From Pseudovirgaria hyperparasitica (Eukaryota): a stretch of DNA of 64,000 nt. The DNA lies in the NCBI GenBank assembly GCA_010093815.1, contig ML996569.1; one strand, given 5' to 3'. The notes below the pieces were generated by a model. The model searched no databases, had not been told where the DNA came from, and saw nothing but the letters and a program-made list of their open reading frames with translations. The position numbers and the translations under genes were made by a program. This document shows positions 31,901-61,803 of this stretch, piece after piece (within the stretch, counting starts at the first letter, position 1; every line of letters begins with the position of its first letter).

Positions 31901-32332
31901 AGATCATCCTTGATGGTCTCGAAGTCTCGAAGTCCTAAGAAGAGGTGCTACAGAAGAATTCTAGAGACCCCCTCTAGTTCATCGTGCATCCTGCTCATCG
32001 CCATCTCGCTACTAAATGGGGTGGTATACGCAGGAGATCTTCACGTCTTCGCTGTAGGCAAATCGTACAGGTATCGCAACCGTCATGCAAGGAGCAATCC
32101 CAGGTGATCGAAGCACGCCACTTACTAAATCCAAACTATGAGAAAGGACATAATTTCTTGGTGAGACGGTCAAGTGAACGCGGAGGTAGCTCCTGCCAAT
32201 ATGTATTCACTAGAAACACTTTCACCACACTGTTAGCCACTGTTCAACAATATTAGAAACTAGTTCAACCTGGTCCGTGGGACTTTGCTCACATGTTACC
32301 TCCCAAGCGAGTGATCGAACATCATCTTCACA

Positions 32333-34786: not shown

Positions 34787-35479
34787 TATACGGAGGTAGA
34801 CTTAGTAGTATTAGAATCTAAACCCTAAGAAGTATCCGAGAATATATTAATTTCTATTATATCTTTAGACTTCTTTAGTATAAGATATTAGTTAATAGTA
34901 TACTTAATATATTATAATATACTAAAGGCTATTTAAGTATATTACTCTAATAGATTTATATTAAAAGTAGTATATATTCTAACTATAAAGGTAAGATCTA
35001 GACGTGTACTAGTAATAAGATAATTAAGTAACCTAATTAGTTATATATATATAAGCTAGTATTCTTAATTAATAATTTCTTCTAATCTTATTAGAAAGGT
35101 ATTTATATTAACTTATTAGGCACGTGCCTACTAGTTAATTATACATGTATATAGTAGTTATATATAAGTAGTATACTCTACCCTTAAAGTAGTAGCTTTA
35201 AGATTTAGTTCTTTTAGTATAGTTAGTTAGTATATAGAGCCCGCCTTCTTATATAATCTTAAAGCTACTATAGGGTCACGGGTTTAACTCTTAGTCTAGT
35301 TAACTATTATTAAATTTTATATGATTCCGTTTAGCTTACCACGTTATATATACTTTATATATATAATAGATAATATAGTAGTAATATTATTACGGTAAGT
35401 TAGCGTGTCTAGTACTAGAGGCGGTATTACGAATATTAATTATATATATATAGTTTATACTAGGCCTAGTGTAGCTAGC

Positions 35480-38400
35480 TATAAAGAGTAAAGACGTAGG
35501 ATAGTAGTCTAACAGTTTATAGAGAGACATAGGAATGTATTTATAGAGTAATCTTACTCTTATATAAGGTTGATTCCTAACAAGTAGGAATCGGTTTATA
35601 TAGTCTACTTATATAGTAACCTCGCTTAACTTAGCTAACTTAACCTAGCTCTAGCCACTACGTGGCTATATAGATTAGAATAGTCTATATAGGTCCGTTA
35701 TAGTTCCCGTCCTAATAATATCCTTCTTCTTTTTATACTTCGCCCTAAAGTACTTAAGTATATATAATTCTAAGTCTCTATAATCTATTATATACCTATA
35801 TATCTATAACTAAGTTCCTATAACGTTATAACTATCCTTAATATAGGTGAACTCGAGATTCTAGTTTACTTTTATTAGTTTATACACGCGCTTATCCCTT
35901 ACTTCGTGGCTACTACCTAGGACACGTAATCGCTACTTTAGTCGAGTATATATTTAGCTTCGCTCGCCTTTAATTTTATTCTCTAGTATATCTATCTTAC
36001 TCTTAAGGTAAGTCGTTAATTCATATACTATCTTCCCTAGTTTAGGTTTAGAAGGGTCTATAGTAGTCTATTCTTATTAGAACTAGTCCTATATAACCTA
36101 TTCGCGTTATTATAGTTACTGATTTAGCTTCGTTAATCGCTATTAAGGGTAGATGAATATTCCTTCCTTAGATCTCTAGCTAATATATATATATAGATAT
36201 CTAATACTAGTCCTATCTCTAAGCCTACCTCCTCCTCTTATAAGACTCGCTCTAAAGGCATCGCCTCCTCCCTAGCTACGCCGGCTAAGAAGCCTACCTA
36301 TCGCGGTAGTATAAAGGCGCGCTCTAAGTCGGAGAAGAGAGTAGCTAGGGCTACTACTACTACTACCTCTACCACTAATATAGCTACTAGTCGCTCTAAT
36401 CTAGGTAATCCTAGTACTAAACTTATGGATAAAGTGGTTATAGGTTCTCCTCTTACTCTAAAGCGCACGCCGTCTACTCTACCTCCTCTAGAGGATAAAG
36501 AAGATCTTATTATAGACGATAATCGCGAGCCCTTACGCTTACCTACGCCGCCGTCTTACCGCTCTTCCTTCCGGTCTAATATAGACTAATTTAGTCGCTC
36601 TAGGTCCTTTTAGGACCTTAATATTTACTCTAAACCCTAGTCTACTAATAATAAGGTCTAGGTCGCCGAGGATACTAAACGTGGTTATAGTTTACGCTAT
36701 AGAAAAACGGCGAACTACGGTTTAATATACTATAAGTATATTAAGAGCTATATAGCCGGCTCTAAATATCTCTTTCGCTCTAACTCTAGTATTAGCTACT
36801 ACTCTACTAACCGCGATGGGCCTATACGCCCTATCTTTACTCTATCTACCCGCTACCGCCGCTATACCGTAACTAGTAAGACTTATCTATAGATAAGTAT
36901 AATAGGCTATCTTAATCTAGTATAATCTAAAGTAGTCCGCGCTAATATATTCTTAGGTTCCTATATATATATAAGATATATATAACGACCTTCGCGTCCG
37001 CGAGACCCTCGGGGGTCCTTATAGCCGCCTATCTACTATATAGAGGGAGTTTAGGGAGCGCTATAAGCTCTTTCTAGAGGTTATTAAAGTATAAGTTACG
37101 AGCACGTTAATTATTTTTAACACCCGTTGATTTTTCTAGCCGCCGCGAGATCCCTAGCGCCTAGGCTATCTATTCTAGGGAGTCTATTCTAGCTATAGAG
37201 GCCGTAAAGAGGATTTACTCTATCCCCCTCTATCCGTCTCACGCTACTAACGGATCTTATAAGAGGTCTACTATTTCTCCCTCTAAGTCGCCTTATAAGA
37301 GGGTATATATTCCCTTCTAGATTATTCTAGATTATATTAGCTAACTTTAGACCTAGTCGCTGCGCTCCGGCGCTTAAGGCTCTTCCCTCTAGGCTCTAAT
37401 AGATCGGGTTATTACTCTAGAGGCTAAGGTTATCGTTCTCCGCCGCTATATCGTGCGGTTAGAGAGGACTATACTAGAGGTTAGGACGGATAATAAGATA
37501 GAGGAGTAGCTCTATAGTTCTAGCTCTATATATTAGCTCTATACCTAGCTCTATATATTCTAGATCTACTATAGATGGTGCGCGCCGGCTCTATTTACCT
37601 AGCATTTATCCGTTTTAGTCCTTTTTAGACCGTTTAGATACCTATTAGCTAGTTTCTAGTAATTTAATTCTTAACTTAATAATATTATATGTACGCTCGC
37701 TTAGCTTATAACTATCGGTTTCTATATTCTAATTTTCCTTAAGTCATCTAAGTATGGGCACCGTATATAAATTAGTTTATCTCTATAAATTCTATTAGAG
37801 TACCCGAACTAGTAGCCTAGTAGTTATTAGTTCGGGTACTCTAATCTTTTATATTTTATATTAAGAGTTTAATTCTATGGTAGGGTACCTTTTTTTAGGT
37901 TCTTAGTCCTATGTTTTTCTCGTATATAATAGTCTATATTAGTCTATTCTAGACTCTTCTATATTATTCTATTATAGTATATCGCGTCGCGTTCCTAAAA
38001 TAGTTATTTATGCTTTCTTCGCGTCTAGTAACCGTATAACGCTTAAATTATAGGGCTGCTATATAGAGTTTTCCTAGTGCGCGTCTAGATTTCCTAGTTT
38101 AGTACTTCGTTCTCTATGGTATCCTTCTTCTTTTTATAACGACCGTGACGTTACTATACTTATATTAATAATACGCTATTCTATATCTTTTACTTATATA
38201 TAGCCATTATAGAACTTAAGATATATACCGCTAGTTCCCAGGTATTCTCGTCCTTAGTATAGTCCTTCTAACGGATTCTATATTTCTAAACACCGTCTTT
38301 ATTAATCCTATGTTTGATAATATGGTCCACTTCGAACACGTCTAGTCTATCTTAGGGTATAATAGAGTGTAACTACACGTTCGTGCGGCTATACACGTTA

Positions 38401-41400: not shown

Positions 41401-43522
41401 TATTCGTCGTTGACTAGCTATACTAGATTCTATTATAGTAGGTACATACGCCAGCCAGCTGTTTTCTAGATGAAGTCTAGTTTCGGGTTATGTTTTTCGA
41501 GCTACGGTATACCGAGAATCATGTTAAAGGGACTATCTACCACGATAAAGGTTAAGTAGTAGGGTTTCTACTTCCCCCCGCTATCCTAGATACTATATTT
41601 AATAGTATAGGTACCCTATAATTTAATAGAACCGTCGATACTATAGAAGGTAGTATCTATTAGTACTTAAATATCGACGTTAAGTTCTCGTACTCGTTAA
41701 GTTAATATAACGTTAGTAGCTAAACCGCTATTAAGTATTATAGTCTAATGTTATCCATGAGGGACCTCGATAGGCCTAGCCTATAGTTTAATATACTAGT
41801 TAGCTAGTTATCCCTCTATTTTAGTTACGCCTATAAGTCGCGAGGGTTCCTTATAGATAGTTAGTTTTTTATATTATATACCGGGTAGTTAGGCGCGATA
41901 TGTCCTAGCTACTAGTACTTATAGTATATAACTAACTTAGTATCTATATTAGTATTCGGTAGTTTCCCTAAGCGGCACTCGGGTACTATATAGCCTATCC
42001 TACTATAGGTATAGTAGGTAACTTTAGGTTATTTATACGAGTCGTTTCTCGCGTCTCGATATATCGACTAGTAGAAAGATCCGTAGTACGGGCCTCGTCT
42101 TCTCGAGTTCGTAGAGTAGTAGCGCCTACGAGGTATTCCGCACGATCTATTACTAAACCGGTCCTCTTTAGACGATTTTATATCGGATTAGATTAATAGG
42201 GATAGTCGTGCGCCTATACGACGTTAGTTATTTATTATATACTAATATCGTTCTACGAGATTCGTGAGTGCCTAAAGGTTAGTAGAGATAGATATTATAA
42301 GGTCGATACGTTCCTTTACGCTTGGGTTAAGGGACCTTTTAAAGTCGTCGTATTATCGAACTATACAATCTTCCTTAGCTTCTCTCTAAAGAGGTCGGAG
42401 GTATTCAAGAAGTTATAACGGGGATTATCTCTCTCGCTATTAAGTCTTAAAGATATGGCTCTAAGCCTATTTACGTCGCTCGGCTCTATTACTAAAGTAT
42501 TAAAGAAGGAATTTAGTAAACGTGTTCTAGTTATACACATCCTTAGGGTGTTTAATTCGATGTACTATCTAACGTTTAGATGGCGTTAGGTCTAGGTAGT
42601 TCTATACGAACCTAATCTTATTACTATCGTTCATGAATAGATAGAAGAATCAGCTATACTAGTAAGCCTATTTATAAAAGCTCCTCCTGGTTTTACCGTC
42701 GAAGTAAGGTAGTTTCTTAGGCTAAGGTAACTAGGATAGTAATAGACTTAGTTAGACTGTTTCGGCTTAAGTTAATCTATATTAGTATAGATTAGTTACT
42801 ACTAGTACTAAAGCGCGTAGTACGGCTTCAAGTCTAGCGGTTTATCCTCACGCTTCGTCAAGTTCACAAAGTTACTACTCAAGCTAAGCCTAACGCTACC
42901 TCTCCGTGTATAGCTTAGTATATATATTATCGTAAGGCGTGGTTAACGTTAGTCGGTTCTAACGAATTAATTCGTTAACGTTAATAGGGTCTAGTCTTAT
43001 AGTAAGGATAGGTCTAGTATAGTATAAACTAGACCGCGATAGAGTATAATAGACTCCTTCCTTATTATCTAGGTAATCTTTCACGGTTATATAGAATACC
43101 GTACTAGTTATTAGTGCGATAGCCTATAGGGTATACTTATTAGTGGAGGTGGTTATAGAGAGACTATTCTCTTCGTTTAGATTTAGAGAGAGTCTCTTAT
43201 ATAAGGTAGTACCACGGGTATTATAGCGCGTAGTAGGAGCTATCTCTATAAGCTACTATTATACTATATAGAGAGGAATTAAAATATAAAGAGTAAAGAC
43301 GTAGGATAGTAGTCTAATAGTTCATAGAGAGACATAGGAATATATTTATAGAGTAATCTTACTCTTATATAAGGTTGATTTCTAACGAGTAGGAATTGGT
43401 TTATACGGTCTACTTATATAGTAACCTCGCTTAACTTAGCTAACTCAACCCAGCTCTGGCCACTACGTGGCTACATGGATTAGAATAGTCCATATAGGTC
43501 CGTTGTGGTTCCCGTCCTAACA
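35480..43522 (-). mobile_element. Ty3/Gypsy chromovirus copy 1 (subfamily A), full length, RIP-inactivated
   Basis: 238-bp LTRs 35480-35717 and 43285-43522; TSD CTAGC; minus-strand gag-PR-RT-RH-IN-chromodomain relics collinear with copy 3. Confidence 0.93.
36197..37509 (+). pseudogene. RIP-mutated antisense accessory gene of Gypsy copy 1
   Basis: Homologous to 59767-61071; ATG mutated to ATA; intron positions conserved. Confidence 0.75.
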
Positions 43523-44494
43523 CTAGCGCGTATACTAGGCCTATTATAGCTAGTTTAGTTTATCTTTCGTAAGGTAGATACCTATAACGCGTAAGGGTAC
43601 GCGCCTTTAAAAAGGGGAGATATTATTAGATACGTGCCTACTAGTTAATTATACATATATATAGTAGTTATATATAAGTAGTATACTCTACCCTTGAAGT
43701 AGTAGCTTTAAGATTCGGTCCTTTTAGTATAGTTGGTTGGTGCGTGGAGCCCGCCTCCTTATATAAATATAAGGATTATAGATGTAGAATAGTAGTCTAA
43801 TAGGTTATAGGAGGATTCGGGAATATATTTAAAAGGGTAGTCTACTCTCTTAATAAGGTTAATTCCTAAAGAGTAGGAATTAAGTATATACGGCCTACTT
43901 ATATAGTAGTCTCGCTTATTCTAGCTGGCTTACCCTAGGTCCACCTATTACGGACTATACTAGACTATAGTATTCTAGTTAAGTCTATTCTAGTATTAGC
44001 CCTAATAATATTCTTCTTCTTTTTATGCTTCGCCCTAAAGTACTTAGCTATATATAAATCTATAATTCTATAAGCGTTATATTTATACGCGTATCTAATT
44101 AAATCTATATAACGTTATTAATAGTCTTTATATTAGTAAACTTAAGCTCTAGTTTACTTTTATTTATATACGCGCTTATCTCTCACTTTATAGCTACTAC
44201 CTTAGAGGTAGCTCCGCGGGTTATATAACTACTATATTAACTAAGCTTATATTTAGTTCTCTTATTCTAAATTTTCTTCTCTAGTATATCTATCTTACTC
44301 TTAAGGTAAGTCGTTAATTTATATACTATCTCCTTTAGTTTAGATCCGTTCGGGTCTAGAGTAGTCTATTTTAGTTAGAGCTGGTTCTATATAATCTATT
44401 TGCGTTATTATAGTTACTAATTTAGCTTCTTTAATTACTTTTAAGGCTAAATAAGTATTCTACTCTTAGATCTCTAGCTAATATATATATATAG

Positions 44495-45799
44495 ATATCT
44501 AATACTAGTCCTATTTCTAAGCCTACCTCCTCCTCTCGTAAGACTTACTCTAAAGAGATTATCTCTACCCCGGCTATACCGACTAAAAAATCTACTTATT
44601 ATAGTAGTATAAAGGCGCGCTCTAAGTTAGAGAAGAAGGTAGCTAAGGCTACTACTACTATTACTACTAATATAGCCACTAGTTGCTCTAATCTAGGTAA
44701 TTCTAGTACTAGTATTACGGAAGAGGTAGCTATAAAGCCTATCTATACCTACTTGCGCCGCCTATCTACTCTATTTTCTTTAGAGGATAAAGAAGATCTT
44801 ATTATAGATAATAATTAAGAGTTTACGTCTTCGCCGCCTCGCTCTAAACACCGTTCCTCTTTTTAGTCTAATATAGACCGACTTAGTTACTCTAGGTCCT
44901 TTTAGGACCTTAATATTTACTCTAAACCTAGCCCTAGTAATAATAAGGTCTAGGTCGCCGAAGATACTAAACGTAGTTATAGTTTACGCTATAGGAAAAC
45001 GGCGAACTACGGTTTAATATACTTTAAGTATATTAAGGCTCACGCTACCGGCTCTAAATATCTCTTCCACTCTAACTCTAGTATTAGCTACTACTCTACT
45101 AACTACGACGGGCCTATATACCTAATCTTTAAGCTCCCTATCTACTACCGCCGCTATACTATCCTTAGTAAAGTTTATCTTTAGGTAAGTCTATTAGGCT
45201 ATTTTAGTCTAGGGTAATCTAAAGTCGTCCATGCTAATACGTTTTTAGATTTCTATTTATATATAAGATATATATAACGATCTTCGCGTCCGCGAGACTC
45301 TTAGTAGTTCTAGCAGTTACCTAGCTTCTATACGTAGGGAGTTTAGAGAGTACTATAAGCTCTTCCTAGAGGTTATTAAAGTATAAGTTTAGAAACCGTT
45401 AATTATTATTAACCTTAGCTTATAATTTTTAGTCGCCGCGAGATTCCTAGCGCTTAGACTACCTATTCTAGGGAGTTGGTTTTAGCTACTAAGGCCGTAG
45501 AAGAGATTTATACTATTTCTTTCCGCCCGCCTTATACTACTAACGGGTCTTATAAGAGATCTACTAGTTCTCCTTCTAAGTTACCTTATAAGAGGGTATA
45601 TATTCTATTCTAGATTATTCTAGACCGTGTTAGCTAACTTTAGGTCTAATCGCTCCGCTCTAGCGCTTAGTTATTATCTTACTAGGCTCTAACTAAGCGC
45701 GTGGTTACTCTAGAGGATAAGGTCTCTAACCTCCGTTACTCTATTACTTAGTTAGTTCGTTCGCTATACTCTAAGAGTAATAATAAGATAGAGGAGTAG
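44495..45799 (+). pseudogene. RIP-mutated antisense accessory gene of Gypsy copy 2
   Basis: Near-identical to the reverse complement of 59767-61071 apart from transitions; intron donor GTAAGT retained at ~45185. Confidence 0.78.
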
Positions 45800-48700
45800 C
45801 TCTATAGCTCTATTTACTAGGGTTTCTATATAGTATGTATTAGCTCTATCTACCTGGTTTCTATCCGTTTTAGTCCTTTTTAGACCGTTTAGATACCTAT
45901 CTACTAGTTTTCTAGTAATTTAATTCTTAACTTAATAATATTATGTACGTTCTTATTTATTCTATAACTATTAAATTTTAGGTTCTAATTTCCTTTAAGT
46001 TACTTAAGTATAGGTATCGTATATAAATTAGTTTATCTCTCTAAATTATATTAGAGTACCCGAACTAGTAGCCTAGTGGTTATTAGTTCGGGTACTCTAA
46101 CCTTTTATATTATATATTACGAGTTTAATTCCGTAGTAGGGTACCTTTTTAGTTTCTTAGTCCTATATTCTTCTCGTATATAATAGTCTATATTAGTCCA
46201 TTCTAGACTTCTCTATATTATTCTATTATAATATATCGCGTCGTGTACCTATAACGGTTATTTACGTTTTCTTCGCGTTTAGTAACCATGCATCGCTTAA
46301 ATTATGGGGCTGCCTTATAGAGTTTTTCTAGTGTACGTTTAGAATTCGTAATTCGATACTTTATTCTCTATAGTATTCTTCTTCTTTTTATAACGGCCCC
46401 GACGGCGCTAGGTTTACGGTAGTAACGTGTTATCCTATAACCTCTATTTATATATAGCTATCGCGGTACTTAAGATATATACTATAGGTTTCTAGGTGTC
46501 CTTATCCTCGGTGTAGTTCTTCCAACGAATTTAATACTTTTAGATACCGTTCTCGTCGAGCCCATGTTCGATAATATAGTCTACTTTATATACGTCTAGT
46601 CTATCTTAGGGTATAATAGAGTATAATTATACGTTCGTGCGTTTATACACGTTAGGTTAAAACCTTTTAAGTAATAAGACGTGGAATATATTATAGACTT
46701 TTATATTATTTCCTAGGTCGAGCTCGTAGGCTCTTATACTAATATAACGTTTAATTCGGAAGGGACTAGCCATTTTATAATCGAGCTTTTTATTTACTCG
46801 CGATATTTATATATTATAGACGTTAAGAAGGACTTTGTCTCCCTCCTTATACGCTTAATCTTTAACTAACCTATTATAGTACTTTATATATGACTTATTC
46901 GCTTACTAGATTATTACGTAATAGTTACGTGCGGTTTTAAAGATTTTAATTGCTAGTTCCTACGTATAGACGTTAACATCTATCGTTCGGTTAAACTAGA
47001 CTATATAAGGTTCGAAATCTATCCTTAGACTATATTCTAGGTTTGCCTAGAAGGGCGTAATACCTATTATACTATAACGACTATTATTATACGCGAATTC
47101 TACTATACTTAGTAGAGAGGCCTAGTTATCTTATTTAAAATTATAGAATGCACGAAGGTAGGCCTCGAGCGTTTGGTTCTATCGCTCTATCTAACTATCT
47201 ATTTATAGATGGAATACTATTAATATGTTTCTATTTATACTAGCTATTTCGTAGAATAACGTCTAGAATTTAGACGTGAATATACTCCCTCGGTCCGTAA
47301 CGATCCTTTTTAGTATACCATAGACCTTAATAATCTTATTCTAGAATACTTATACTAGTTCTTTTAATATAATTATCTTCTATATAGGGATATACCTAGA
47401 CATCTTTATAAGTCTATCTATGATAATAAGAATTAAATTATAACTTATTCTAAGCATCTTGCTTAGAGGTAAGTTAACTATAAAATCTATAGTAATATCT
47501 TCCTATATAAAGAGGGGGACTAGTAGAGGCTATAAGTTCCTATATGGCTTATGCCTAGGTACCTTTATTCTTTAATAAATTAGATAAGTAGCTATCTATT
47601 CTTCGACGTACTTAGGTATATCTTTCTAAAAATAGTACTAATAAATCGAGCTTAGGGTGCGTATATACCCAAAATATCCTATTAGGTTAGTGTTATAGTA
47701 TCGGCTAACTATAGTAAATCGTGCGTTACCCGTCGGTATATAGTACTTTCTATTATAGTAGAGTAAGCTATCTATAAAGGTCTACTTATAGTCTACTTCG
47801 GTCTATAATAACCTATCTTACTATATTTTACGTAACTTTAAAACTATCGGGTCTATCTTTTATAGATCCACGATTAACTAGGCGAGGTCTACTTAATATA
47901 CACGCTAGGTACTATCGCCCTCCCTAATAGCGCCGATAAATGGCTCGCTAGGGACTTTGGTACTACGTCTTTAGTTACCGGCTTCGGTCTTATAAATTCG
48001 ATTACCGGTATTAGCGTTAGTATCTTACTAATTATTAGATAACTTATTATCTAATCTCGTCCTTAAGAGTTAGGCCTATAGCTACTCTAGGACCCTATAG
48101 CTACTATAATTCTAGGCGTCTTCTTTATAGTTAGGTCTTCTTAATATTCTATTAGCTAGGTTTATACTTCTAGGTTAATAGTAGATTATAAAGTAGAAAT
48201 TTATAAGCTACTTAGCCTATTAAATCTATTAACGATTTAAAACTATCGTGCTTATAAACCCCTTTAAGTTATAGTAATTAGTTAGTAACTTAACGTTATA
48301 TATAGTACCTTTAAGATAATATCGCCACTACTTAAACAACTCTACTATTACTAGTAGCTCTTAGTTATAAATAGTATATCTAGTCTTAACATCAGCTATC
48401 TTACACAAGAAGAACGTAACTAGATACTATTAGACCTTTTTAGACTCTATTAGTCTAGGCTAGAAGAGTATACCCGAGATTATAAATCCTAATATATTAG
48501 TTTCGACGCGAATAGGTTTAGTTAGATTAAAGTATACTAGTAATAGGGCGGTTATAAATACTTCTTTAATCTTCTTGAAGAATATTCTTTCGACCTTAGT
48601 TAATTTAATAGATTATGATTTAATATTACGCTATTTCTATCTACTACGGACCGTAATAGACGAGTTAGTAGTAGTAGTATACGTATTAAGTAGTGCGGCT

Positions 48701-49187
48701 AAACGGGAGAAGTATTTAATAAATTTTTAGTAGTAGTTAGCGAAGCTAATAAAGACACGTATATCTTAAACGGATTTTAGTTGAGGCTAGTCTATAATAG
48801 TAGTAACTCTATCTTTCTCTATGGTTATATCTTAATTAGTAATAACGAAGCTAAGAAAGTTAATATAGTCCTAATAGAACTCGCATTTGGATAGCTTAAT
48901 ATATAGCTTATACTTTTCTAGTCTATCTAGAACTATATATATATGCTAGATATACTCCTCCTTATTATCTAAGAAGATAAGGATATTATCTAGGTACATG
49001 ATATATATCGTATCGAGTAGGCCTACTAGCATGTTATTAATATACGCTTAGAAGGTGCCTAGCGCGTTAGTTAGTCTAAAAGGGACCATAGTATACTTAA
49101 AGTATCTATAACGGGTCCTAAAAGCCGTTTTTTATTCGTCGCCTTCCTTAATACGAAGGCGATAGTAGATATTATATAGATTAAGCT

Positions 49188-51434
49188 CCCGAACGACAAA
49201 GCGCCCGGGCTAGACGGAATTCCGAATCGATGCCTTAAGAGGACCATATAGGCGACCTTACCGATTATAGGCCATATATTCCGAGCGTGCGCCCGTATAG
49301 GATACTACCTATAGAGCTTCTAAACCGTATATATAGTTATACTCCTAAAACTAGGGAAGAGCCTAAACACGCCGAAGGGATGGAGGCCGATCGCCCTCCT
49401 CTCCTACCTTAGTAAGGTACTAGAAGCTACGATTACTAAGAAGATAAGTATAGTAGTATAGGTACACGGCCTTCTCCTAGTAAACCAGAAGGCGAAGGTA
49501 GGAAGCTCCCTAATCATAGCCATTTAATATATCCTTAAGGTCATCTAGACTATATAGAAATAAGAACGAGTCGTTACGCTACTCTCCCTAGACATAGTAG
49601 AGGCGTTTAATAAGGTAAACCATATAAGACTTATCTATAACCTCCGGATAAGGCGAATACCTAAGTGGATTATACGATTTATATAGTCCTTCCTCGCGTA
49701 AAGGACTACTTAAATATATATCCCCGGATACCGAAGCGAATATAAGAAGACGGTATACGGTATCCCGTAAGGGAGTACTATCTCCCCGATTCTCTTCCTC
49801 TTCTTTATAGTAGACCTCCTTTAGAGAATAGAATATATAGAGGTAGTTAGATACGCGGACGATATATACCTCCTCGCGGTCGATAGTAGTACTAGTAGAA
49901 TATATACACGACTCGAACAAGACCACGAGAAATGCGTCTAGTAGATAAAGCGCTATGGAGTAAAATTCGCACCTGAAAAATACTAGCTTATATACTTTAT
50001 TAACTACTATAGAGGATAGACTACTAGGGAGAGGGCACGTCGCCCCTAAATCGACGCCTTTATAGAACTACTAGTATAGAGTATATAAGCACTCGGCGTT
50101 ATAATCGATAATAAGCTAAAATAGGGACCATAGGTGGTATACGCCGTCTCTAGAGCCCTCTAGATAGAAACCGCTATATACCGGATTACGGTATCCACGT
50201 GGGGAATAGCCCGGGATAAGGCGAGATAGCTATACGTCTCCCTAGCACGCCTAGCCTTTATATACGGACACGAGTACTAGTATACGGCCCTTACATAAGC
50301 TCGGCGGGTAAAGCTTAAGTCCATATAAAACCGTATACTCCGCCTTATCTCCGGCGTATATAAAGCTACTAACACGACGCTCCTCTAACGCGAGATAAAC
50401 GTAACGAGTATATAGAACTTCTACTAGATATAGAGACTTATATACTTTACTAAATAATAAGTATAAGAACGTGGAGAAGATAGGGTATATACCTTCGCCG
50501 TACTACGTACACGTATCCGCGCGTATTACTAGGCCCTCCCTACTATAGAATAAACTCGAGTATAATATAAATACTATATAGAGGCGGACTCGAGCTAGAC
50601 CGTATAGGAGGTTCGAAATAACCCAGATACCGTCCCGAGCTAATAGAGCCCTAAGGAGCTTAGCCGCGTTATATAGTTATAGATGTAGGATAAATAGAGG
50701 GAGGTACTTAAAGCCTAGTGGGCCTCCTAATAGGATAGGTATCTAGAATAGATCTGAGGGCCTTAGAAGGAACTAAGTAAATAGATGTATAAAGGGCTAA
50801 CGAAGGCCTAAGCATCTATACTCCTCTAAGCCTAAATAGGTACTATAGGTCTCCTATATTACCTCTACTAGAGAGGCGTCCTAGATATATCTTCCTAGTA
50901 TAAGGACTACGGCCGGAGAGGTATAATACGCCACTACCTCGCGACGTACTCTAGCCTCTATACTCTAAGATAAGCCCTTATCCGTATAATAAGGACCTCT
51001 AATATTACGCGATAGCTTAATAAGTACTCTAAGGATATCGCCCGATAGATGCTCGTATACCTTCCTCTCCCCTAGTTCTAGTAGACCCGCGTATATATAC
51101 TAGAAGAAGCCTAATATATGCCGGAAGAACCCCGGTATACGTCGGAAGAACCCCGGGAGAACCGCGATTATTAGTTAAGGGCAGCCCTTAACTAATAATC
51201 TCCGTACCTACACGTGCTACCTAAGGGTAAACCATTATAATATAGGCTATAGGCCTATAGGTAGCCCCTAGGGCTATATATATATAAAGAACGAGAGGAT
51301 AGATAGAGCGTAGTTATGGATATAAGGGAGTTTTTCCTATTCGTAGGTTTCTTCTTATATAGTAGCTTAGACTAGAGGAGGCATGCGCCTATAGAGTGGT
51401 ACTCTACCTAGTTTACTAATATTATTATTATTAT
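49188..51434 (+). mobile_element. 5'-truncated non-LTR retrotransposon (LINE, probably Tad1 clade), RIP-mutated
   Basis: Starts at PNDKAPGLDGIPN, followed by WRPIALLSYLSKVLE, GIP*GSTISPILF and YADD. Has a C-terminal CCHC-like relic, a (TAT)n tail and a 13-bp TSD TATAGATTAAGCT (49175-49187 and 51435-51447). Confidence 0.92.
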
Positions 51435-52201
51435 TATAGATTAAGCTTAGTAAAGATCTTTACGCGTTCTAGTCTATCGATAGACTTAGAGATAAGAGGT
51501 AGTAGATAATAATTCTTTCGTGTAATATTATTTAGGCTATAGTAGTTAATATATAGACGGAGACTCCTATCCTTCTTCTTTATAAAGAGGATTAGAGCTC
51601 CGGCTAGAGATATACTAGACCTAATCTATCCTCGCGTAAGGTTCTTTTTAATATATTCTCGAAGGGCTTATAACTCAGGTTCTAAAAGAGGGTAGATGGG
51701 TCTATATAGAGGTTACTAGCTATCTTTAAGATTAATAGTAAGGTCGGTAGGTTAGTATTAAGGTAGTTTAGAGGAATTAATTACTAACGTGATATATTAG
51801 TATATTTTATACTAATGTAGTAGGTTTTCGTCTACTTTAATACTAAGCTTACTATTTTACGTAAGTAAGAGTACGTAGATAGTAGAGATCGCCTTCTTAT
51901 AATCTTTCTAGAATTATTCGTTGTCGATAAGCTATACTAGTTCCTATTAAGATAGATTTATACGCTAGCTAGCTATCTTCTTAAGGAAGTCTAGTTTTAG
52001 GTTATATTTCTTAAGCTACGGTATACCTAGAATTATATTAAAGGGACTATCTACCACGATAAAGGTTAAGTAGTAGAGTTTCTATTTCCCTCCGCTATCC
52101 TACATTAGGAAAGATACAGCGCTCCCAAGTACTCCTAAGTACTCCCTAAGTATTCTTTCATCCTATTATATCCATCGGGCGGACCTACTTACTATCTATC
52201 C

Positions 52202-52960
52202 NNNNNNNNNNNNNNNNNNNNNNNNNNNNNNNNNNNNNNNNNNNNNNNNNNNNNNNNNNNNNNNNNNNNNNNNNNNNNNNNNNNNNNNNNNNNNNNNNNN
52301 NNNNNNNNNNNNNNNNNNNNNNNNNNNNNNNNNNNNNNNNNNNNNNNNNNNNNNNNNNNNNNNNNNNNNNNNNNNNNNNNNNNNNNNNNNNNNNNNNNNN
52401 NNNNNNNNNNNNNNNNNNNNNNNNNNNNNNNNNNNNNNNNNNNNNNNNNNNNNNNNNNNNNNNNNNNNNNNNNNNNNNNNNNNNNNNNNNNNNNNNNNNN
52501 NNNNNNNNNNNNNNNNNNNNNNNNNNNNNNNNNNNNNNNNNNNNNNNNNNNNNNNNNNNNNNNNNNNNNNNNNNNNNNNNNNNNNNNNNNNNNNNNNNNN
52601 NNNNNNNNNNNNNNNNNNNNNNNNNNNNNNNNNNNNNNNNNNNNNNNNNNNNNNNNNNNNNNNNNNNNNNNNNNNNNNNNNNNNNNNNNNNNNNNNNNNN
52701 NNNNNNNNNNNNNNNNNNNNNNNNNNNNNNNNNNNNNNNNNNNNNNNNNNNNNNNNNNNNNNNNNNNNNNNNNNNNNNNNNNNNNNNNNNNNNNNNNNNN
52801 NNNNNNNNNNNNNNNNNNNNNNNNNNNNNNNNNNNNNNNNNNNNNNNNNNNNNNNNNNNNNNNNNNNNNNNNNNNNNNNNNNNNNNNNNNNNNNNNNNNN
52901 NNNNNNNNNNNNNNNNNNNNNNNNNNNNNNNNNNNNNNNNNNNNNNNNNNNNNNNNNNNN
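52202..52960. other. Assembly gap (N run)
   Basis: Run of n bases. Confidence 1.
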
Positions 52961-54068
52961 NACCATCTAACTTTATTTTAATTTAAGTATCGGTCGGGGT
53001 AGATAGACTACTAGTTAAGGTAGCTATAACTAGGGATAATAAGTTAGTAATAGACTTATTCATACTACACGTATATATACTATCATTTACCGTTCCCGTA
53101 GTTACTTAGAGCGGGTCTATACTTAATACCCGAGATAGTATAATCTTATCTGTAGCTACTACTAGTGGTATAGAACTCTTACCTATATCTAATAGCGCAT
53201 AAGATGATTCGAGGTACTTATCTAACTAGTTTAGAGTATCCGACTTATCCTTTTCGTAGTAGTTAGTACCTATATAGTCTCTATAACTTTAGTATATACT
53301 TATATTACCCGATAGCTTAGACTCCTCGCTCTCGTCTAAGTCATCTATATCTACTTTAGAGAAGTTATCTAGGTTATCTTTATATAGGTTTATATATATA
53401 GTATCTAGGTTAATTAGTATTAGTACTATAAATACCAATACTATTAGCGATTTTTAAATGTAGTCGATATGGTAGGGCGCCTAGTTTAACTATATTAGGC
53501 TTAGCGCTCGCTATTCCTCTATATAATTTAGCACGCGATTAGATAAAGGTATATATATATATACCTAGTATTAGTAGAGAGCGTGCGAATCTATAGCGAC
53601 CGAAGGACGAGTTCGGCGCCTACCCGCTACTATATTCGTTAAGGGCATGCCTTATTATAACATATATAATAGTAATCGTAGATGGTAGGATTAGTCGGAA
53701 CATACTACTATAGTACTCCTTTAATCCAAGGAATCTTAGGGACTATAGTAGAACCAACTTTAGAGCCTTAATTACTACTAGCCCTACTGTCAGGGCTGAC
53801 ACCAGGATGGACTCAACTGGACCACTATGGTCTAGTACGGTCCGTGACAGGTGGACCTAGGTTAAGCCAGCTAGAATAAGCGAGACCACTATATAAGTAG
53901 GCCGCACATACTTGATTCCTACTCTTTAGGAATCAACCTCGTTAGGAGAGTAGACTACCCTTTTAAATATATTCCCGAATCCTCCTATGACCTATTAGAC
54001 TACTATCCTACGTCTATAATCCTTACATTTTAATTCCTCTTTATATAGCACGACGGTAGTTTATAGGA

Positions 54069-55451
54069 ATGGCTCTAACCACTCGTCATAACACTCGTGG
54101 CACCGCCTCTTATGGTAGACCTTCTCCCAACCTAAATGAGGAGAATAGTCTACCTATAACTACCCCCACCGATGACCACACCTTATAGGCCATCGCACCG
54201 ATAACTCGCACGATATTCCGTGTAACTATAGAAGATATTATAGAACACGAGGATGGAGTCCATCATACTCCATCTCGGTCTAGTTCGAACCATACTAGAC
54301 CTAACCTTAACACGAGGCTAGACCTTGTTAACGTTAATGAGTTAATCCGTTAGAATCGCCTAACGTTAACCACACCTCATAACGACATGTATACTAGACT
54401 ACACGAAGAGAGGCAACGATAGGTTTAACTCGAGTAATAACTACGCGAACTCGACGAAGCTCGAGGACATACTACGAGACTTAAAGCTGTATTACGCGCT
54501 TTAGTTCTAGTAACGACTAATCTATATTCACATGGACCCATACCAACTAAAACGATCTATCCTAGTCCACTACTATCCCAATTGCCCCGACCTAAGAAAC
54601 CACCTCACTTCGATAGTAAAAGTAGAAAGAGTTTCCACGCATAGGCTTACTAATGTAGCCGATTCTTCCATCTATTCACGAACGACAGCGATAAAATTAG
54701 ATTCGCCTAGAACTACCTCGACCCGACGCCTTTAGAACGTTAGATGGCACACCGAATTAAACATCCTAAGGATGCCCATAACTGGGACACGTTCACCGAA
54801 TTTCTCCTCTAATGTTTTGGCGACAGGGCTGAACGACGCGACTAGGCCTAGGGCCATATCTTCGAGACTCGACAACGAGATAATTAGTCACCGTTATAAC
54901 TCCTTAAATACCTTCGGCCCCTCTAGAGAGAAGCCGAAGAAGATTATATGATTCGATAGTGCGACGACTTTAAACGGTCCCTCGCCCTAAATGTAAAGGA
55001 CCGTCTCGACCTTACAATGATAATCCCTATAGACCTCTAAGCTCTTATAAACCTCGCGGAGCGATACTAGCGCATAATGAATAATTAACGCCGCGCTGGT
55101 GTACGACTATCCCTAACGATCTAATCTAACGCAAAATCGTCTAACTAAAACCGATTTAGTAATAGATCTCGCGGGACGTCACGAGGCCACTACTACGCCT
55201 CGAATTCAAAACCACGCGGATCGTATCGTGGATCTCCCTACTAATCGACACATCGAGATGCGAGGACCGACTCGCATAAACGATCTAAAGTCACTTACTA
55301 TACCTATGGTAGAATAGGCTATATAGCACCTAAGTGCCGTTCGGGGAAGCCACCGAGTGCTAATATAACTAACTAACTAGTCATATACTATAAGTGCCAG
55401 TAGCTAGGACACATCGCGCCTAACTACCTAGCATAGAATATAAAAAACTAA
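54069..55451 (+). pseudogene. gag: gag with two CCHC zinc knuckles (RIP stops)
   Basis: ATG at 54069. Knuckle relics (C)YT(C)GRIG(H)IAPKC and (C)YKCQ*LGHIAPN(C) at ~55296-55427. Ends at AAAAAAC TAA. Confidence 0.85.
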
Positions 55452-58400
55452 TAGCCTACGAGAAACCCTCGCGACTTATAGGCGCGACCATAATAGAGGG
55501 GTAATCCTCTAAATAGTACATTAAACTATAGGCTAGACCTATCGAGGTCCCTCGTGGATAATATTAGACTATAATACTCGATAGTAGGTCGGCCACTAAC
55601 GTTATGTCGACCCAACGAGCACGAGAACTTAACGCCGACATCTAAGCTCTAATAAGTGCCATGTTCCATGGCATCGACGGTCCCATTAAGTTATACGGCA
55701 CCTATACCATCAAATACGGCATCTAGGACAGCGGAGGGAAATGGAAACTCTACTGCTCAACCTTCATCGTGGCAGACAGTCCCTTCGATATAATCCTAGG
55801 TATGCCATAGCTTAAGAAATATAACCCAAAACTAGACTTCCTTAAGAAGATAGCTGGCTGGCGTATGAACCCACCTTAATGGGAACTAGTGTAGCTTGTC
55901 GACGACGAACAATTCCAGAAAGATTGCGAAAAGGCGATCTCTACTATCTACGTGCTCTCACTCACGTAAAATGGTAAGCTTAATATTAAAGTGGACGAAA
56001 ACCTACTATATTAGTATAAAATGTACTAATATGTCGCGTCAGCGATCGATTCCTCCGAACTACCTTAATACTAACCTACCGACCTTACTATTGATCTCGA
56101 AGACGGCTAGTAACCTCTACATGGACCCATCTACCCTCTTTTAGAACCTGAGTTATAAGCCCTTTAAGAATACATCGAAAAGAACCTTACGCGAGGGTGG
56201 ATTAGGCCTAGTATATCCCTAGCCGGAGCTCTAATCCTCTTTGTAAAGAAGAAGAATAGGAGCCTCCGTCTATGTGTTGACTACCGTAGCCTAAATAACA
56301 TCACGCGAAAGAATTATTACCTACTACCTCTTATCTCTAAGTCTATCGATAGACTAGGGCGCGTAAAGATCTTTACTAAGCTCGATCTACGTGACGCCTA
56401 CTATCGCCTTCGTATTAAGGAAGGCGACGAATGGAAAACGGCTTTTAGGACCTATTATGGACACTTTAAGTACACCGTGGTCCCTTTTAGACTAACTAAC
56501 GCGCCAGGCACCTTCCAAGCGTACATTAATAACGCGCTAGTAGGCCTACTCGACACGACATGTATCGTGTACCTAGATGATATCCTTATCTTCTTAGATA
56601 ACGAGGAGGAGCATATCTAGCACGTACGTGCAGTCCTAGATAGGCTAGAAAAGCACAAGCTATACATCAAGCTATCCAAATGCGAGTTCCATTAGGACCA
56701 TATTAACTTTCTTAGCTTCGTTATTACTAATCAAGGTATAACCATGGAGAGAGATAGAGTTACTACTATTATGGACTGGCCTAAACTAAAATCCGTTCGA
56801 GATATACGTGTCTTCATTGGCTTCGCCAACTACTACCGAAAATTTATTAAACACTTCTCCCGTTTAGCCGCACCACTTAATACGCGTACTACTACCACCG
56901 ACTCGTCCATTACGGTCTGTGGTAGACAGAAACAGTATAATATCGAATCATAACCTATTAAATTAACTAAGGTCGAAAGAATATCCTTCGAGAAGATTAA
57001 AGAAGCATTCCTAACCGCCCTATTACTAGTGCACTTCGACCCGACTAAACCTATTCACGTCGAAACTAATGTATTAGGATTTACAATCTTAGGTATACTC
57101 TCCTAGCCTAGACCAATAGAGTCTAAAAAGGTCTAATGGCATCTAGTTGCGTTCTTCTCGCGCAAGATGGCCGACGTCGAGACTAGATACACTATTCATG
57201 ACCAAGAGCTACTAGTAATAGTAGAGTCGTTTAAGTAGTGGCGATATTATCTTAAAGGTGCCATGCATGACGTTGAGTTACTAACTAATTACTATAACTT
57301 AAAGGGGTTTATAAGCACGACGGTTTTAAATCGTCGATAGGTTCGATAGGCTAAGTGGCTTATAAATTTCTACTTTATAATCTACCATCGACCTAGAAGT
57401 ATAAACCCAGCTAATAGGATGTTAAGAAGACCTAACTATGAAGAAGGCGCCTAGGATCATAGTAGCTATAGGGTCCTAGAGTAGCTGTAGGCCCAACTCT
57501 CAAGGACGAGGTTAGATAATAAGTTATCCGACGATTAGCGAGATGCTAACACCGATACCGGTAATCGAATTTATAAGACCGAAGCCGGTGACTAAAGACG
57601 CGGTACCGAAGTCCCCAGCGAGCCATTTATCGGCGCTGTTAGGGAGGGCGATAGTACCCGGCGTGTATGTTAAGTAGACCTCGCCTAGTTGATCGTGGAT
57701 CTGTAAAAGACAGACCCGATAGTTTTGAAGTTGCGTAAAATGTAGCAAGATAGGTTATTACGGACCGAAGTGGACTATAAGTGGACCTTCGTGGACGGCT
57801 TGCTCCACTATGATGGAAAGTACTATGTGCCGATAGGTAACGCACGATTTACCGTAGTTAGCCGATACCATAACGCTAACCTAGCAGGACATTTCAGGTA
57901 TGTACGCACCCTAAGCTCGATTCGTTAGTACTATTTTTAGGAAGATATGCCTAAGTACGTCGAAGAATAGATAGCCACTTATCCGATTTATTAAAGAACA
58001 AAGGCACCTAGGTATAAGCCATATAGGAACTTGCAGCCTCTACTAGTCCCCCTCTTTATATAGGAAGATGTTACTATGGATTTTATAGTTAACTTGCCTC
58101 CAAGCGAGATGCTTAGGATAAGTTATAATTCAATTCTTATTATCGTGGATAGACTTATAAAGATATCTAGGTACGTCCCTATGTGGAAGACGATCACATT
58201 AAAAGAACTAGTACAAGTATTCTAGAATGAGATTATTAAGGTCCATGGTGTACTAAAAAGGATCGTTACGGACCGAGGGAGTACATTCACGTCCAAATTC
58301 TAGACGTCATTCTACGAAATGGCCGGCATGAACAGAAACATGTTAATAGCATTCCATCTATAAATAGATGGTTAGACAGAGCGATAGAACCAAACGCTCG

Positions 58401-59230
58401 AGGCCTACCTTCGTGCATTCTACAATTTCGAACAAGACGACTAGGCCTCTCTACTAAGTACAGCAGAATTCGCGTATAATAATAGTCGTTATAGTATAAT
58501 AGGTGTCACGCCCTTCCAGGCGAACCTAGGACGTAGTCCAAGGACAGGTTTCGAACCTTACACGGTCTAGTTCGACCGAACGATAGATGTTAACGTCCAC
58601 GCGTAGGAACTGGCGATTAAAATCTTTGAAACCGCACGTAACTATCGCGTAATGATCCAGCAAGCGAATGAGTCATATATAAAGTACTATAATAGGTTAG
58701 TTAAAGATCAAGCGTACGAGGAGGGAGACGAAGTCCTCCTTAACGTCCGTAATATACGAACGTCGCGAGTGAATAAAAAGCTCGATTATAAAATGGCTAG
58801 TCCCTTCCGAATCAAACGTCGCATCGGTATAAGAGCCTACGAGCTCGACCTAGGAAACGACATAAAAGTCTATAACGTATTCCACGTCTTATTGCTTAAA
58901 AGGTTTCGACCTAACGTGTATAAATGCACGAACGTGCAATTACACTCCATTATACCCTAAGATGGACCAGACGTGTACGAAGTGGACTATATTGTCGAAC
59001 ATGGGCTCGACGAGAACGGTGTCCAAAAGTATCGAATCCGTTGGAAGAACTGCACCGAGGATGAGGACACCTAGGAACCTGCGGTGCATATCTTAAGTGC
59101 CGCGATGGCTATATATAAACAGAGGTTATAGGATAACACGTTACTACCGTAAACCTAGCGCCGTCGGGGCCGTTGTAAAAAGAAGAAGGATGCCGTGGAA
59201 AACGAAGTGTCGAATCACGAATCCTAAACG
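55448..59230 (+). pseudogene. pol: pol: protease, RT, RNase H, integrase and chromodomain (RIP stops; end approximate)
   Basis: ILDS protease motif, [42 protein letters not shown] and chromodomain VYEVDYIVEH...YRIRWKNCTEDEDT*EP. Confidence 0.93.
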
Positions 59231-59465
59231 CACACTAGGAAAACTCTATAAGGTAGCCCTATAATTCAAGCGATGCACGGTTACCAAACGCGAAGAAAAC
59301 GTAAACAACCGTTATAGGCACGCGACGCGACACATCACAATAGAATAATATAGAGAAGTCTAGAATGGACTAACATGGACCATTACACACGAGAAGAACA
59401 TGGGACCAAGAAACTAAAAAGGTACCCCACTACGGAATTGAACTCGTGATATATAATACAAAAGG

Positions 59466-59515
59466 TTAGAGTACCCGAACTAATAACCACTGGGCCACTG
59501 GTTCGGGTGCTCTAA
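59466..59515. repeat. Conserved long inverted repeat (hairpin) between pol and the antisense gene
   Basis: TTAGAGTACCCGAACTAAT...ACTGGTTCGGGTGCTCTAA; arm mismatches are transitions only. Also present at 37795-37844 and 46051-46100. Confidence 0.85.
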
Positions 59516-59766
59516 TATAATTTAGAGAGATAAACTAATTTATATATAATGCCTACACTTAAGTGACTTAAAGGAAATCAGAACCTAAAATTCAATAGTC
59601 ACAGAATAAACAAGAACGCATATAATATCATTAAGTTAAGAATTAAATTACTAGAAAACTAGTAGACGGGTATCTAAACGGTCTAAAAAGGACCAAAACG
59701 GATAGAAACCAGGCAGACAGAGCCAACACACACCACATAGAAACCCTAGTAAACAGAGCCATAGAG

Positions 59767-61071
59767 CTACTCCTCCATCTTATTATTACTCTTAGAGCGC
59801 AGCGAACGAACTAACCGAGTAATAGAGCGACGGAGGTTAGAGACCTTATCCTCTAGAGTAACCACGCGCTCGGTTAGAGCCTAGTAAGACGACGACTAAG
59901 CGCCAGAGCGGAGCGACTAGACCCAAAGTTAGCCAACGCGGTCTAGAATAATCTAGAATAGAATATATACCCTCTTATGAGGTGACTTAGAAGGAGAACT
60001 AGTAGATCTCTTGCGAGACCCGTTAGTAGCACGAGGCGGGTAGGAAGGAATAGCACGAATCTCTTCTGCGGCCTTAGTAGCCAAAACCGACTCCCTAGAA
60101 TGGGTAGCCTAAGCGCTAGGAATCTCGCGGCGACTGAAAATTATAAGCTAAGGTCAATGATAATTGACGGTTTCTAAACTCACACTTTAATGACCTCTAG
60201 GAAGAGCTTATAGCGCTCCCTAAACTCCCTACGCATAGAAGCCAGGTAACCGCTAGAACCGCCGAGAGTCTCGCGGACGCGAAGATCGTTATATGCATCT
60301 TATACACGAACAGGAACCTAAAAACGTATTAGCATGGATGACTTTGGATCACCCTAGACCAAAATAGCCTAATAGACTTACCTGAAGACAAACTTTACCG
60401 AGGACGGTATAGCGGCGGCAGCGGGTAGGGAGCTTAAAGATTAGGCGTATAGGCCCGTCGCGGTTAGTAGAGTAGTAGCTGATACTAGAGTTAGAGCGGA
60501 AGAGATATTTAGAGCCGGTGGCGTGAGCCTTAATACACTTAAAGCACATCGAACCGTAGTTCGCCGTTTTCCTATAGCGTAAACCGCGACCACGTTTAGT
60601 ATCTTCGGCGACCCAGGCCTTATTATTACTAGGGCTAGGTTTAGAGCGAATATTAAGGTCCTAAAAGGACCTAGAGCGACTAAGTTAGTCTATGTTAGAC
60701 CGAAAAGAGGAACGGCGTTTAGAGCGAGGCGGCGAAGGCGTGAACTCTCGATTATCGTCTACGACGAGATCTTCTTCATCCTCTAAAGGAGGTAGAGTAG
60801 ACAGGCGGCGCGAGTAGGTGTAGGTAGGCTTTACAGCCACCTCTTCCGCAACACCAGTACTAGGATCACCTAGATTAGAGCGACTAGTGGCCACGTTAGT
60901 GGCAACAGTAGTAGTAGCCTTAGCTACCTTCTTCTCTAACTTAGAGCGCGCCTTCACACCACTACGATGAGTGGATTTTTTAGCCGGTATGGCCGGGGTA
61001 GAGGTAATCCCTTTAGAGCGGGTCTTGCGAGAGGAGGAGGCAGGCTTGGGAATAGGACTAGTATTAGACAT
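59767..61071 (-). pseudogene. Antisense, intron-containing accessory gene of the chromovirus (~396 aa; Cys cluster plus leucine zipper), RIP-damaged
   Basis: Exons 61071-60382, 60317-60184 and 60133-59767. Introns are GTAAGT..GCTAAT..TTTTAG (64 nt) and GTGAGT..CATTGAC..TTTTCAG (50 nt). The frame is continuous after splicing, and all internal stops are TAA/TAG, revertible to CAA/CAG/CGA. Confidence 0.8.
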
Positions 61072-61803
61072 CTATACACACACGTTAGCTGGAGATCTGA
61101 GAGTGGAATACTCGTTCAGCCTTAAAGGCGATTGAAGAAGCTGAATTAGTGACCGTAATAACGCGAATGGATTACATAGGACCAGCTCTAACGAAAATGG
61201 ACCACTCTAGACCCGAACGGATCTGAACTGAAGGAGATAGTATATGAATTAACGACTTACCTTAAGAGTAAGGTGGATGTACTAGAGAAGAAAATTTAGA
61301 ATAAGAAAACTAAATATAAGCTTAGTTAATGTAGCGGTCACATGACCCGCGGAGCTACCTCCAAGGCAGCAGCTATAAAGTAAGGGATGAGCGCGTGTAT
61401 AAATAAAAGTGAACTGGAGCTTAAGTTTACTAATGTAAAGACTATCGATAACGTCATATAGATTCAATTAGATGCGCGCATAAACATAACGCTTTTGGAA
61501 TTACGGATTTGCGTGTAGCTAAGTGCTTTAGGGCGAAGCATAAAAAGAAGAAGGATATTATTAGGGCTGACACTAGGATGGACTTAACTGGACCACTATG
61601 GTCTAGTACGGTCCGTGATAGGTGGACCTAGGTTAAGCCAGCTAGAATAAGCGAGACCACTATATAAGTAGGCCGCATATACTTGATTCCTGCTCTTCAG
61701 GAATCAACCTCGTTAGGAGAGTAGACTACCCTTTTAAATATATTCCCGAATCCTCCTATGACCTGTTAGACTACTATCCTACGTCTACAATCCTTACACC
61801 TAC

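Follow-up and report, generated by a model that had tools for sequence, protein, structure and literature searches.

The 64,000-nucleotide stretch of contig ML996569.1 of Pseudovirgaria hyperparasitica (assembly GCA_010093815.1) that we analyzed, hereafter the window, carries in its right half three copies (A, B and C) of one Ty3/Gypsy long terminal repeat (LTR) retrotransposon family. The segment between pol and the 3' LTR of these copies probably holds a real, formerly coding accessory gene of a fungal chromovirus, interrupted by three introns, lying antisense to the element and by now dead through repeat-induced point mutation (RIP). In copy C, pol ends near 59232 and the 3' LTR begins at 61559, both on the plus strand, and the predicted gene occupies the minus strand between them, from 61071 to 59767. 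Its three introns are canonical GT..AG introns with motifs that resemble branch sites, and their removal leaves a coding sequence of 1137 nt (378 codons). An earlier note, based on the letters of the sequence, had placed an ATG at 61071 and two introns at 60318-60381 and 60134-60183. We located these exactly there, with canonical signals; the note had missed the third intron (59970-59917), which changes its product of ~396 aa to one of 378 codons. The predicted parts of the gene in copy C, followed by its counterparts in the other copies, are listed below.

60382..61071, minus strand: exon 1, 230 codons, starting with the ATG; a basic Ser/Thr/Pro-rich N-terminal part, then a Cys-containing segment; 2 in-frame stops.
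60318..60381, minus strand: intron 1, 64 nt, GTAAGT..GCTAAT..TAG.
60184..60317, minus strand: exon 2, 134 nt, with a 3' part that is protein-identical across the three copies.
60134..60183, minus strand: intron 2, 50 nt, GTGAGT..CAG.
59971..60133, minus strand: exon 3, 163 nt, with a basic, Ser/Pro/Lys/Arg-rich end.
59917..59970, minus strand: intron 3, 54 nt, GTATAT..GCTAAC..TAG; 3 in-frame stops if retained.
59767..59916, minus strand: exon 4, with a coiled-coil pattern of four Leu/Val/Ile heptads; stop codon at 59769-59767.
61072..61540, minus strand: upstream region, presumed promoter and 5' untranslated region (5' UTR), with a conserved GTAAGT at 61260.
44495..45799, plus strand: antisense gene of copy B, with ATA for ATG and 10 internal stops after splicing (11 with the terminal stop).
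36197..37509, plus strand: antisense gene of copy A, with ATA for ATG, 10 internal stops after splicing (11 with the terminal stop) and a coding sequence of 1146 nt.

The start codon is therefore an ATG in copy C only, and this copy is also the best preserved by stop count. Once spliced, its frame contains 6 stops in 378 codons, compared with 17 in 434 codons when the introns are kept, and it is the frame with the fewest stops among the six (6 vs 13, 54, 11, 20 and 60). The resulting density of 1.6% lies below that of pol (44/1100) and below the values of about 5-11% seen in the frames of the flanks. RIP is a fungal defence that loads repeated DNA with C-to-T changes, and it converts CAA, CAG and TGG into stop codons. 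All 6 stops are TAA or TAG, with 1 Gln codon and 1 Trp codon surviving; pol presents the same pattern, with 44 stops against 29 Gln and Trp codons (Fisher p=0.70 for a difference). A CAG codon of copy C still has its C at position 60384, where almost every other genomic copy has the RIP form.

Selection was tested on transversions only, which RIP does not make, by comparing copies C and A as representatives of two subfamilies. Among the 74 exon transversions 27 are synonymous, against 20.9% expected (omega ~0.46, p=0.0015). The other five frames gave omega values of 0.64-2.17 in the same test, none of them significant. By codon position, the transversions are distributed 20/19/35 (p=0.04). The indels within exons measure 6 and 3 nt, and only in intron 2 does the gene have an indel of a length not divisible by 3, namely 1 nt; the flanks carry indels of 1, 1, 4, 15 and 1 nt and of 33, 2, 1 and 2 nt. 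In the zipper encoded by exon 4, the a/d positions are identical in 7/7 cases, compared with changes at 8/15 of the other positions (p=0.022). A strict intron pattern matches only 4 times in 2 x 32 kb of the repeat region, and 2 of these matches are intron 1 of copies C and B. Intron 2 is more diverged than its flanking exons (9/49 vs 10/297 transversions, p=0.0003), as the earlier note had claimed. These results suggest that moderate purifying selection acted on the antisense gene during the divergence of the two subfamilies, and they support the note's proposal of an intron-bearing antisense gene of the element family with signs of past selection on the protein.

Regarding the product, the spliced frame would encode a very basic protein of ~378 residues (77 Lys plus Arg vs 32 Asp plus Glu), with Ser as the commonest residue. 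A low-complexity, Ser/Thr/Pro-rich N-terminal half would be followed by a short Cys segment, a helical-looking middle that does not vary among the three copies, a Ser/Pro/Lys/Arg stretch and a C-terminal coiled coil of four perfect Leu/Val/Ile heptads. The Cys, basic and heptad motifs quoted in the earlier note are all there. The Cys segment reads CxxC, a 38-residue gap and C-x2-Y-x6-C. Copy C has 4 Cys, and all 4 are Tyr in A and B; RIP therefore turns Cys into Tyr here. The note had suggested that Tyr codons of this region may be mutated Cys: the change is seen between copies (4/4), and some of the Tyr common to all copies may likewise be lost Cys, although for these shared residues the claim is unproven.

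We compared the predicted protein with known domains. The lone Pfam match is a sub-threshold one to KELK on exon 4 (E=0.055, 14.4 bits vs a cut-off of 27). Pfam has no zinc-finger match for the protein. Of the dimeric, zinc-binding nuclear regulator put forward in the earlier note, zinc binding is not supported, dimerisation may be hinted at by the conserved heptads, and a nuclear or regulatory role would be read from composition. A basic leucine zipper (bZIP) was rejected. With exons 3-4 read through and E values of up to 10 allowed, Pfam listed 0 families; by eye, the N-x7-R signature that a bZIP basic region carries at a set distance from the first Leu is absent, and the would-be basic helix contains a Pro. 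The Zn2Cys6 domain (PF00172) shares with our protein its fungal origin, the presence of Cys and, in many cases, a coiled coil after it, and the earlier note had entertained this fold. We discard it, since the Cys segment has no Pfam match to PF00172 and does not have the CX2CX6CX5-12CX2CX6-8C spacing. Only 4 Cys are present, and the residue at +6 after the CxxC is a Gly whose GGC codon is not derivable from Cys by a RIP-type change. AlphaFold2 gave no confident fold for the 92-aa Cys segment, with an unusable mean pLDDT (predicted local distance difference test) of 38.7. In the ESM Atlas, the best scores of the same segment were 0.86 to Ascomycota clusters and 0.79 to a cluster that is partly DUF3716, which are leads only and not confirmed by hmmscan.

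Several observations weigh against a once functional protein-coding gene. Constraint on it is far weaker than on pol, where the same test gives 37/55 synonymous transversions (omega 0.10, p=8e-17) compared with the omega of 0.46 above, and the synonymous test uses a single informative pair, as B and C differ by transitions only. Taken over the whole gene, exons are no more conserved than introns (74/1137 vs 14/167 transversions, p=0.41), and exon 4, the most diverged exon (24/150), is on par with intron 2; the note's contrast of a diverged intron 2 between preserved exons thus stands locally and fails for the gene overall. The exons are even more diverged than the non-coding flanks (74/1137 vs 34/846 transversions, p=0.016). 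When the main frame is continued 5' of the ATG, the test gives 11/27 synonymous transversions (p=0.005), so either the model has a wrong 5' end or values of this kind can come out of the test in non-coding DNA. This part of the frame is fairly open, with 4 stops in 132 codons (61072-61467, minus strand), and the GTAAGT at 61260 lies within a 33-nt block identical in all copies; 61072-61467 could represent a further exon upstream or an intron of the 5' UTR, and the 5' end of our model is provisional.

The stops count on the same side. Where the earlier note had a single frame running to the stop at 59767, the best copy has 6 internal stops after splicing. Besides, 5 of the internal stops are common to all three copies, and a RIP origin for these 5 is therefore not demonstrable from the window. 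The de-RIPed consensus of the three copies still contains 5 internal stops (6 with the terminal one).

Homology searches were likewise unfavorable. No Pfam family rose above threshold for exon 1, exon 2, exons 3-4 read through or the copy B versions, and no true relative appeared in protein collections for exon 1 or exons 3-4. A word-indexed collection gave none for exon 1, for the 92-aa Cys segment or, among longer proteins, for exons 3-4. A HMMER scan of 1.84 billion representatives with exon 1 returned only one match (P0001), a 1658-aa tandem-repeat protein aligned in 19 short stretches, which we judged spurious. Metagenome and viral contigs contained no relative of exon 1. The searches with exon 1 also did not list among their matches BRTN, the product of a known antisense gene of Botrytis elements, although BRTN proteins are reported in NCBI (PMC5987419). 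As to transcripts, none of the joints listed in four contig runs matches the removal of an intron, and a search of sequencing runs listed no RNA run for the gene sequence.

The integrase-chromodomain part of pol, used as a query, found 15 metagenome loci, to which the spliced protein aligned in a local tblastn search only with E values of at least 2. At one of these loci (L001:2094-9766), a metagenome contig holds an apparently intact chromovirus with LTR segments 99% identical and an open 810-codon pol. The ~2.2 kb that separate its pol stop from its 3' LTR contain scattered short repeats and an antisense frame that is open over 318 codons and has no early Met. This spacer has no similarity to the antisense gene of the window, and its open frames have no Pfam family.

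The gene sits in a well-delimited cassette. The earlier note had reported ~2.3 kb of extra DNA between the chromodomain and the polypurine tract (PPT) in the three copies; this was borne out, with ~2.3-2.4 kb separating the chromodomain from the PPT in copy C and a collinear arrangement in 3/3 copies. The landmarks of the cassette in copy C are the following.

59176..59191, plus strand: internal 16-nt polypurine tract TAAAAAGAAGAAGGAT, at the pol end; left cassette border.
61541..61556, plus strand: 3' PPT beside the 3' LTR, the same 16 nt TAAAAAGAAGAAGGAT; right cassette border.
59466-59515, no strand assigned: hairpin with arms of ~22 bp, downstream of the antisense gene, ~250 nt after its stop codon.

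The two tracts flank the cassette exactly, at a spacing of 2365 nt. The internal one is exact in A and C and has 1 mismatch in B, with a chance expectation of 0 matches. This duplication suggests a scar left when the cassette was acquired at the PPT, the tract being duplicated in the process; alternatively, the internal tract is a working second PPT. A direct repeat of this kind would offer an easy route to loss of the cassette, so its retention in both subfamilies would fit the selection signal. A third PPT-like copy, with 1 mismatch, lies in the reverse transcriptase (RT) coding region of copies A (41055-41070) and B (51569-51584), and could be a central PPT or merely a Lys-rich coding stretch. 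The hairpin is kept in all 3 copies (46051-46100 in B, 37795-37844 in A). It folds at -32.8 kcal/mol on the plus strand, which corresponds to the sense RNA of the element (z=-4.96), compared with z=-2.76 on the minus strand. By eye, 59430-59520 is partly tRNA-like; ARAGORN found 0 genes there, and we read it as a hairpin. Rfam had nothing at 59430-59520, its sole match in 32 kb being a chance one to DUF805b (E=0.82).

One could argue that the cassette was transduced from the host, as a cellular gene with introns that was captured along with its flanks beside the PPT and carried passively, without serving the element, the selection signal being either its past as a host gene or a weak residual constraint. 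Its form as a complete gene unit with flanks and introns would agree with this, as would the weak constraint (omega 0.46) and the duplicated 16-nt PPT, which resembles an insertion or capture scar. Yet the gene is present and collinear in both subfamilies and in 3/3 copies, and it was while the subfamilies diverged, that is, after any capture, that synonymous changes came to be in excess, indels stayed in frame and the heptads were conserved. In addition, the window has no second copy outside the elements, the exon 1 query found no host protein relative among the 1.84 billion representatives, and transduced genes are described as usually sense-oriented and present in few copies (PMC7264820). 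We therefore hold a passive transduction to be unlikely.

A shade less likely again is that the functional unit is an RNA or a cis-acting DNA, for instance an antisense non-coding transcript serving as a source of double-stranded RNA (dsRNA), or cis elements of the genomic RNA, and that the open frame has no meaning of its own. Other retroelements are known to have antisense non-coding transcripts (PMC7264820), and such a role would accommodate the greater conservation of flanks and hairpin than of exons (34/846 vs 74/1137 transversions, p=0.016), the good folding of the hairpin on the sense strand (z=-4.96) and the failure of the protein searches to find a homologue. Against it, only one frame of the six shows the synonymous excess, the indels in exons preserve codon phase, the spliced frame is the lowest in stops, the heptad core is conserved, and a dsRNA source would not need three canonical introns. 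Finally, the absence of any gene, with frame and intron-like motifs arising by chance in an AT-rich, RIP-mutated spacer, seems to us highly improbable. Stops occur in every copy, the searches gave neither a homologue nor RNA evidence, and RIP-skewed sequence yields odd periodicities; but the six-frame stop counts, the frame-specific synonymous excess and the phases of the indels are hard to obtain in this way, and the strict intron pattern is rare (4 matches in 64 kb of strand, 2 of them intron 1 of C and B).

The host elements and their main parts are given below.

53788-61798, pol on the plus strand: copy C, 8011 bp, complete, RIP-degraded.
35476-43456, pol on the minus strand: copy A, of a divergent subfamily.
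43765-52105+, pol on the minus strand: copy B, with a 2.27-kb insertion, then a block of N.
53788..54027, plus strand: 5' LTR of copy C, 240 bp, TG..CA.
61559..61798, plus strand: 3' LTR of copy C, 240 bp, opening with TATTA, the RIP form of TGTCA.
53783-53787 and 61799-61803: 5-bp target duplication CCTAC, which brackets copy C.
55901..59232, plus strand: pol frame of copy C (Pfam), with 44 RIP-type stops in 1100 codons; 3' end at ~59232 judged by eye.
About 56243-56722, plus strand: RT in copy C pol (Pfam RVT_1, 1.9e-29).
About 57845-58006, plus strand: integrase zinc domain in copy C pol (Pfam Integrase_H2C2, 1.1e-07).
About 58724-58906, plus strand: SH3_Tf2-1 in copy C pol (Pfam, 4.3e-14).
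About 58976-59110, plus strand: chromodomain in copy C pol (Pfam Chromo, 6.3e-07), residues 1026-1070.

Copy C thus has TG..CA LTRs, a target-site duplication and a PPT beside the 3' LTR. According to Pfam, its RT, RNase H (RT_RNaseH_2, 2.9e-19), integrase and C-terminal chromodomain follow in that order in one frame, and the family is therefore a Ty3/Gypsy chromovirus. Copy A is 78% identical to C across 8034 nt and differs from B and C by 4-8% transversions; it is a second subfamily. Copies B and C are 88% identical and, since all their differences are transitions, were one sequence before RIP. Relative to A and C, copy B has an insertion of 2.27 kb at 49169-51437, inside RT, with 42% GC and a single copy within the window; a run of N at ~52200-52960, either an assembly gap or masked sequence, truncates its 5' part.

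The elements are RIP-mutated repeats. The usual RIP thresholds are 0.89 for TA/AT and 1.03 for (CA+TG)/(AC+GT). The two indices are 1.52 and 0.57 in copy C and 2.16 and 0.48 in the region of the antisense gene; copies A and B have a TA/AT of 1.79, with (CA+TG)/(AC+GT) of 0.19 and 0.15, respectively. For the GC-rich left half of the window the values are 0.73 and 1.26. A sharp compartment border at ~32000-33000 separates this gene-bearing half (~50% GC, without a RIP signature) from RIP-mutated repeat DNA of 23-44% GC on its right. Contigs from two DNA runs of the same organism (X1 and X2) cover all 30 bins of the cassette. Thousands of short variant contig pieces fall on 59150-61600 (4133 in X1), which is not a copy count, and the 169 variant places on the cassette include 75 C>T and 55 G>A vs 10 A>G and 12 T>C. 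Because the pieces are so many and their variants mostly C>T or G>A, the family must be highly repeated, and copy C must be among its least RIP-mutated members. Two runs under the same species label from another sample contain almost nothing of the cassette.

On our preferred reading, that of a formerly coding antisense gene, the cassette would be a self-contained unit that has untranslated DNA of its own both upstream and downstream, acquired at the PPT with duplication of the tract. As established in principle, introns antisense to the genomic RNA are not spliced from it and are therefore copied through reverse transcription, and the three introns would have been carried unspliced in this way. 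RIP would later have killed the gene in all three copies, along with gag-pol. As a tentative idea about function, the protein might have been an oligomerising, nucleic-acid-binding nuclear factor, expressed from an internal antisense promoter and acting in trans on the transcription or retrotransposition of the family; a role of this sort has been put forward for antisense accessory open reading frames (ORFs) of plants and for the nuclear protein of maize Grande gene23. More doubtful still is a bolder version, in which a gene related neither to brtn nor to host genes was acquired independently and encoded a spliced antisense, basic coiled-coil, possibly zinc-binding nuclear factor controlling the expression or copy number of the element. 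If this version were true, the gene would be a functional convergence with the antisense HBZ of deltaretroviruses, and the duplicated PPT would preserve the scar of antisense gene capture by an LTR retrotransposon. The gene is dead in the present genome, so it has no present function there.

Accessory genes set complex retroviruses apart from simple retrotransposons, and the antisense ones are poorly understood. Ours would be a second fungal case beside brtn of Botrytis, delimited and intron-bearing, with measurable past selection and a visible acquisition scar. It would also indicate that antisense accessory genes can be recognized even in RIP-degraded repeats, which are usually dropped in annotation. 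Should fungi without RIP have intact relatives, the effect of the protein on retrotransposition would be directly testable.

Among known systems, the nearest by description is brtn, an antisense gene between pol and the 3' LTR in the Boty elements of Botrytis cinerea and Sclerotinia sclerotiorum (PMC7264820; PMC8365987; citing Zhao et al. 2011, Virology 417:248). Boty-like elements carry a chromodomain (PMC4227169), and brtn is the only non-plant case named in the available text of a review of antisense accessory ORFs (PMC7264820). Its existence contradicts the earlier note, which had recognized no described fungal system; our search of the literature, with subscription journals and supplements outside its coverage, found no other fungal case. 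As far as the published descriptions go, brtn and our gene share a fungal host, a Ty3/Gypsy chromodomain element, a site with pol on one side and the 3' LTR on the other, and the antisense orientation, and they differ in that the copies in the present window are RIP-dead. The missing exon 1 match argues, weakly, against a close relationship between the two.

HTLV-1 (human T-cell leukemia virus type 1) offers a more distant parallel in HBZ, which is spliced and encodes a bZIP factor. Both genes lie antisense to gag-pol near the 3' end, have a spliced message (a predicted one in our case) and encode a basic stretch followed by leucine heptads. The likeness is one of outline, as our gene has no bZIP match and no sequence relatedness to HBZ. 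Besides, the antisense promoter of HTLV lies in the 3' LTR (PMC7264820), whereas the gene in the window starts outside the LTR, with 470 nt of upstream DNA inside the element to itself.

In plants, antisense ORFs between pol and the 3' LTR (aORF-3R) are described in maize Grande (gene23), rice RIRE2, Silene Retand (with a TRP28 domain) and Phaseolus PvRetro13 (SMC-like) (PMC7264820, PMC11963269). Grande gene23 has its own upstream promoter and a nuclear protein; most aORF-3R are said to be without clear homologues, with a regulatory role proposed and unproven, and the reviews, as far as available, credit none of the antisense accessory ORFs with a known function (PMC7264820). Our gene has the same position and orientation and, like the plant ORFs, is present in most copies of its family, here in 3/3 window copies from two subfamilies. 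The definition of aORF-3R (PMC7264820) also asks for conservation akin to that of the other proteins of the element; our gene shows constraint, though much less than pol (transversion omega 0.46 vs 0.10, from one sequence pair). The plant cases belong largely to the non-chromovirus Tat/Retand lineages, and the available text of the reviews describes no three-intron structure for them; in Pfam, the window protein matches neither PF04195 nor SMC. A gene of this kind has therefore already been described, both in fungi with brtn and in plants, and what is noteworthy in the present one is its multi-intron structure, its orphan protein and its PPT-bounded cassette.

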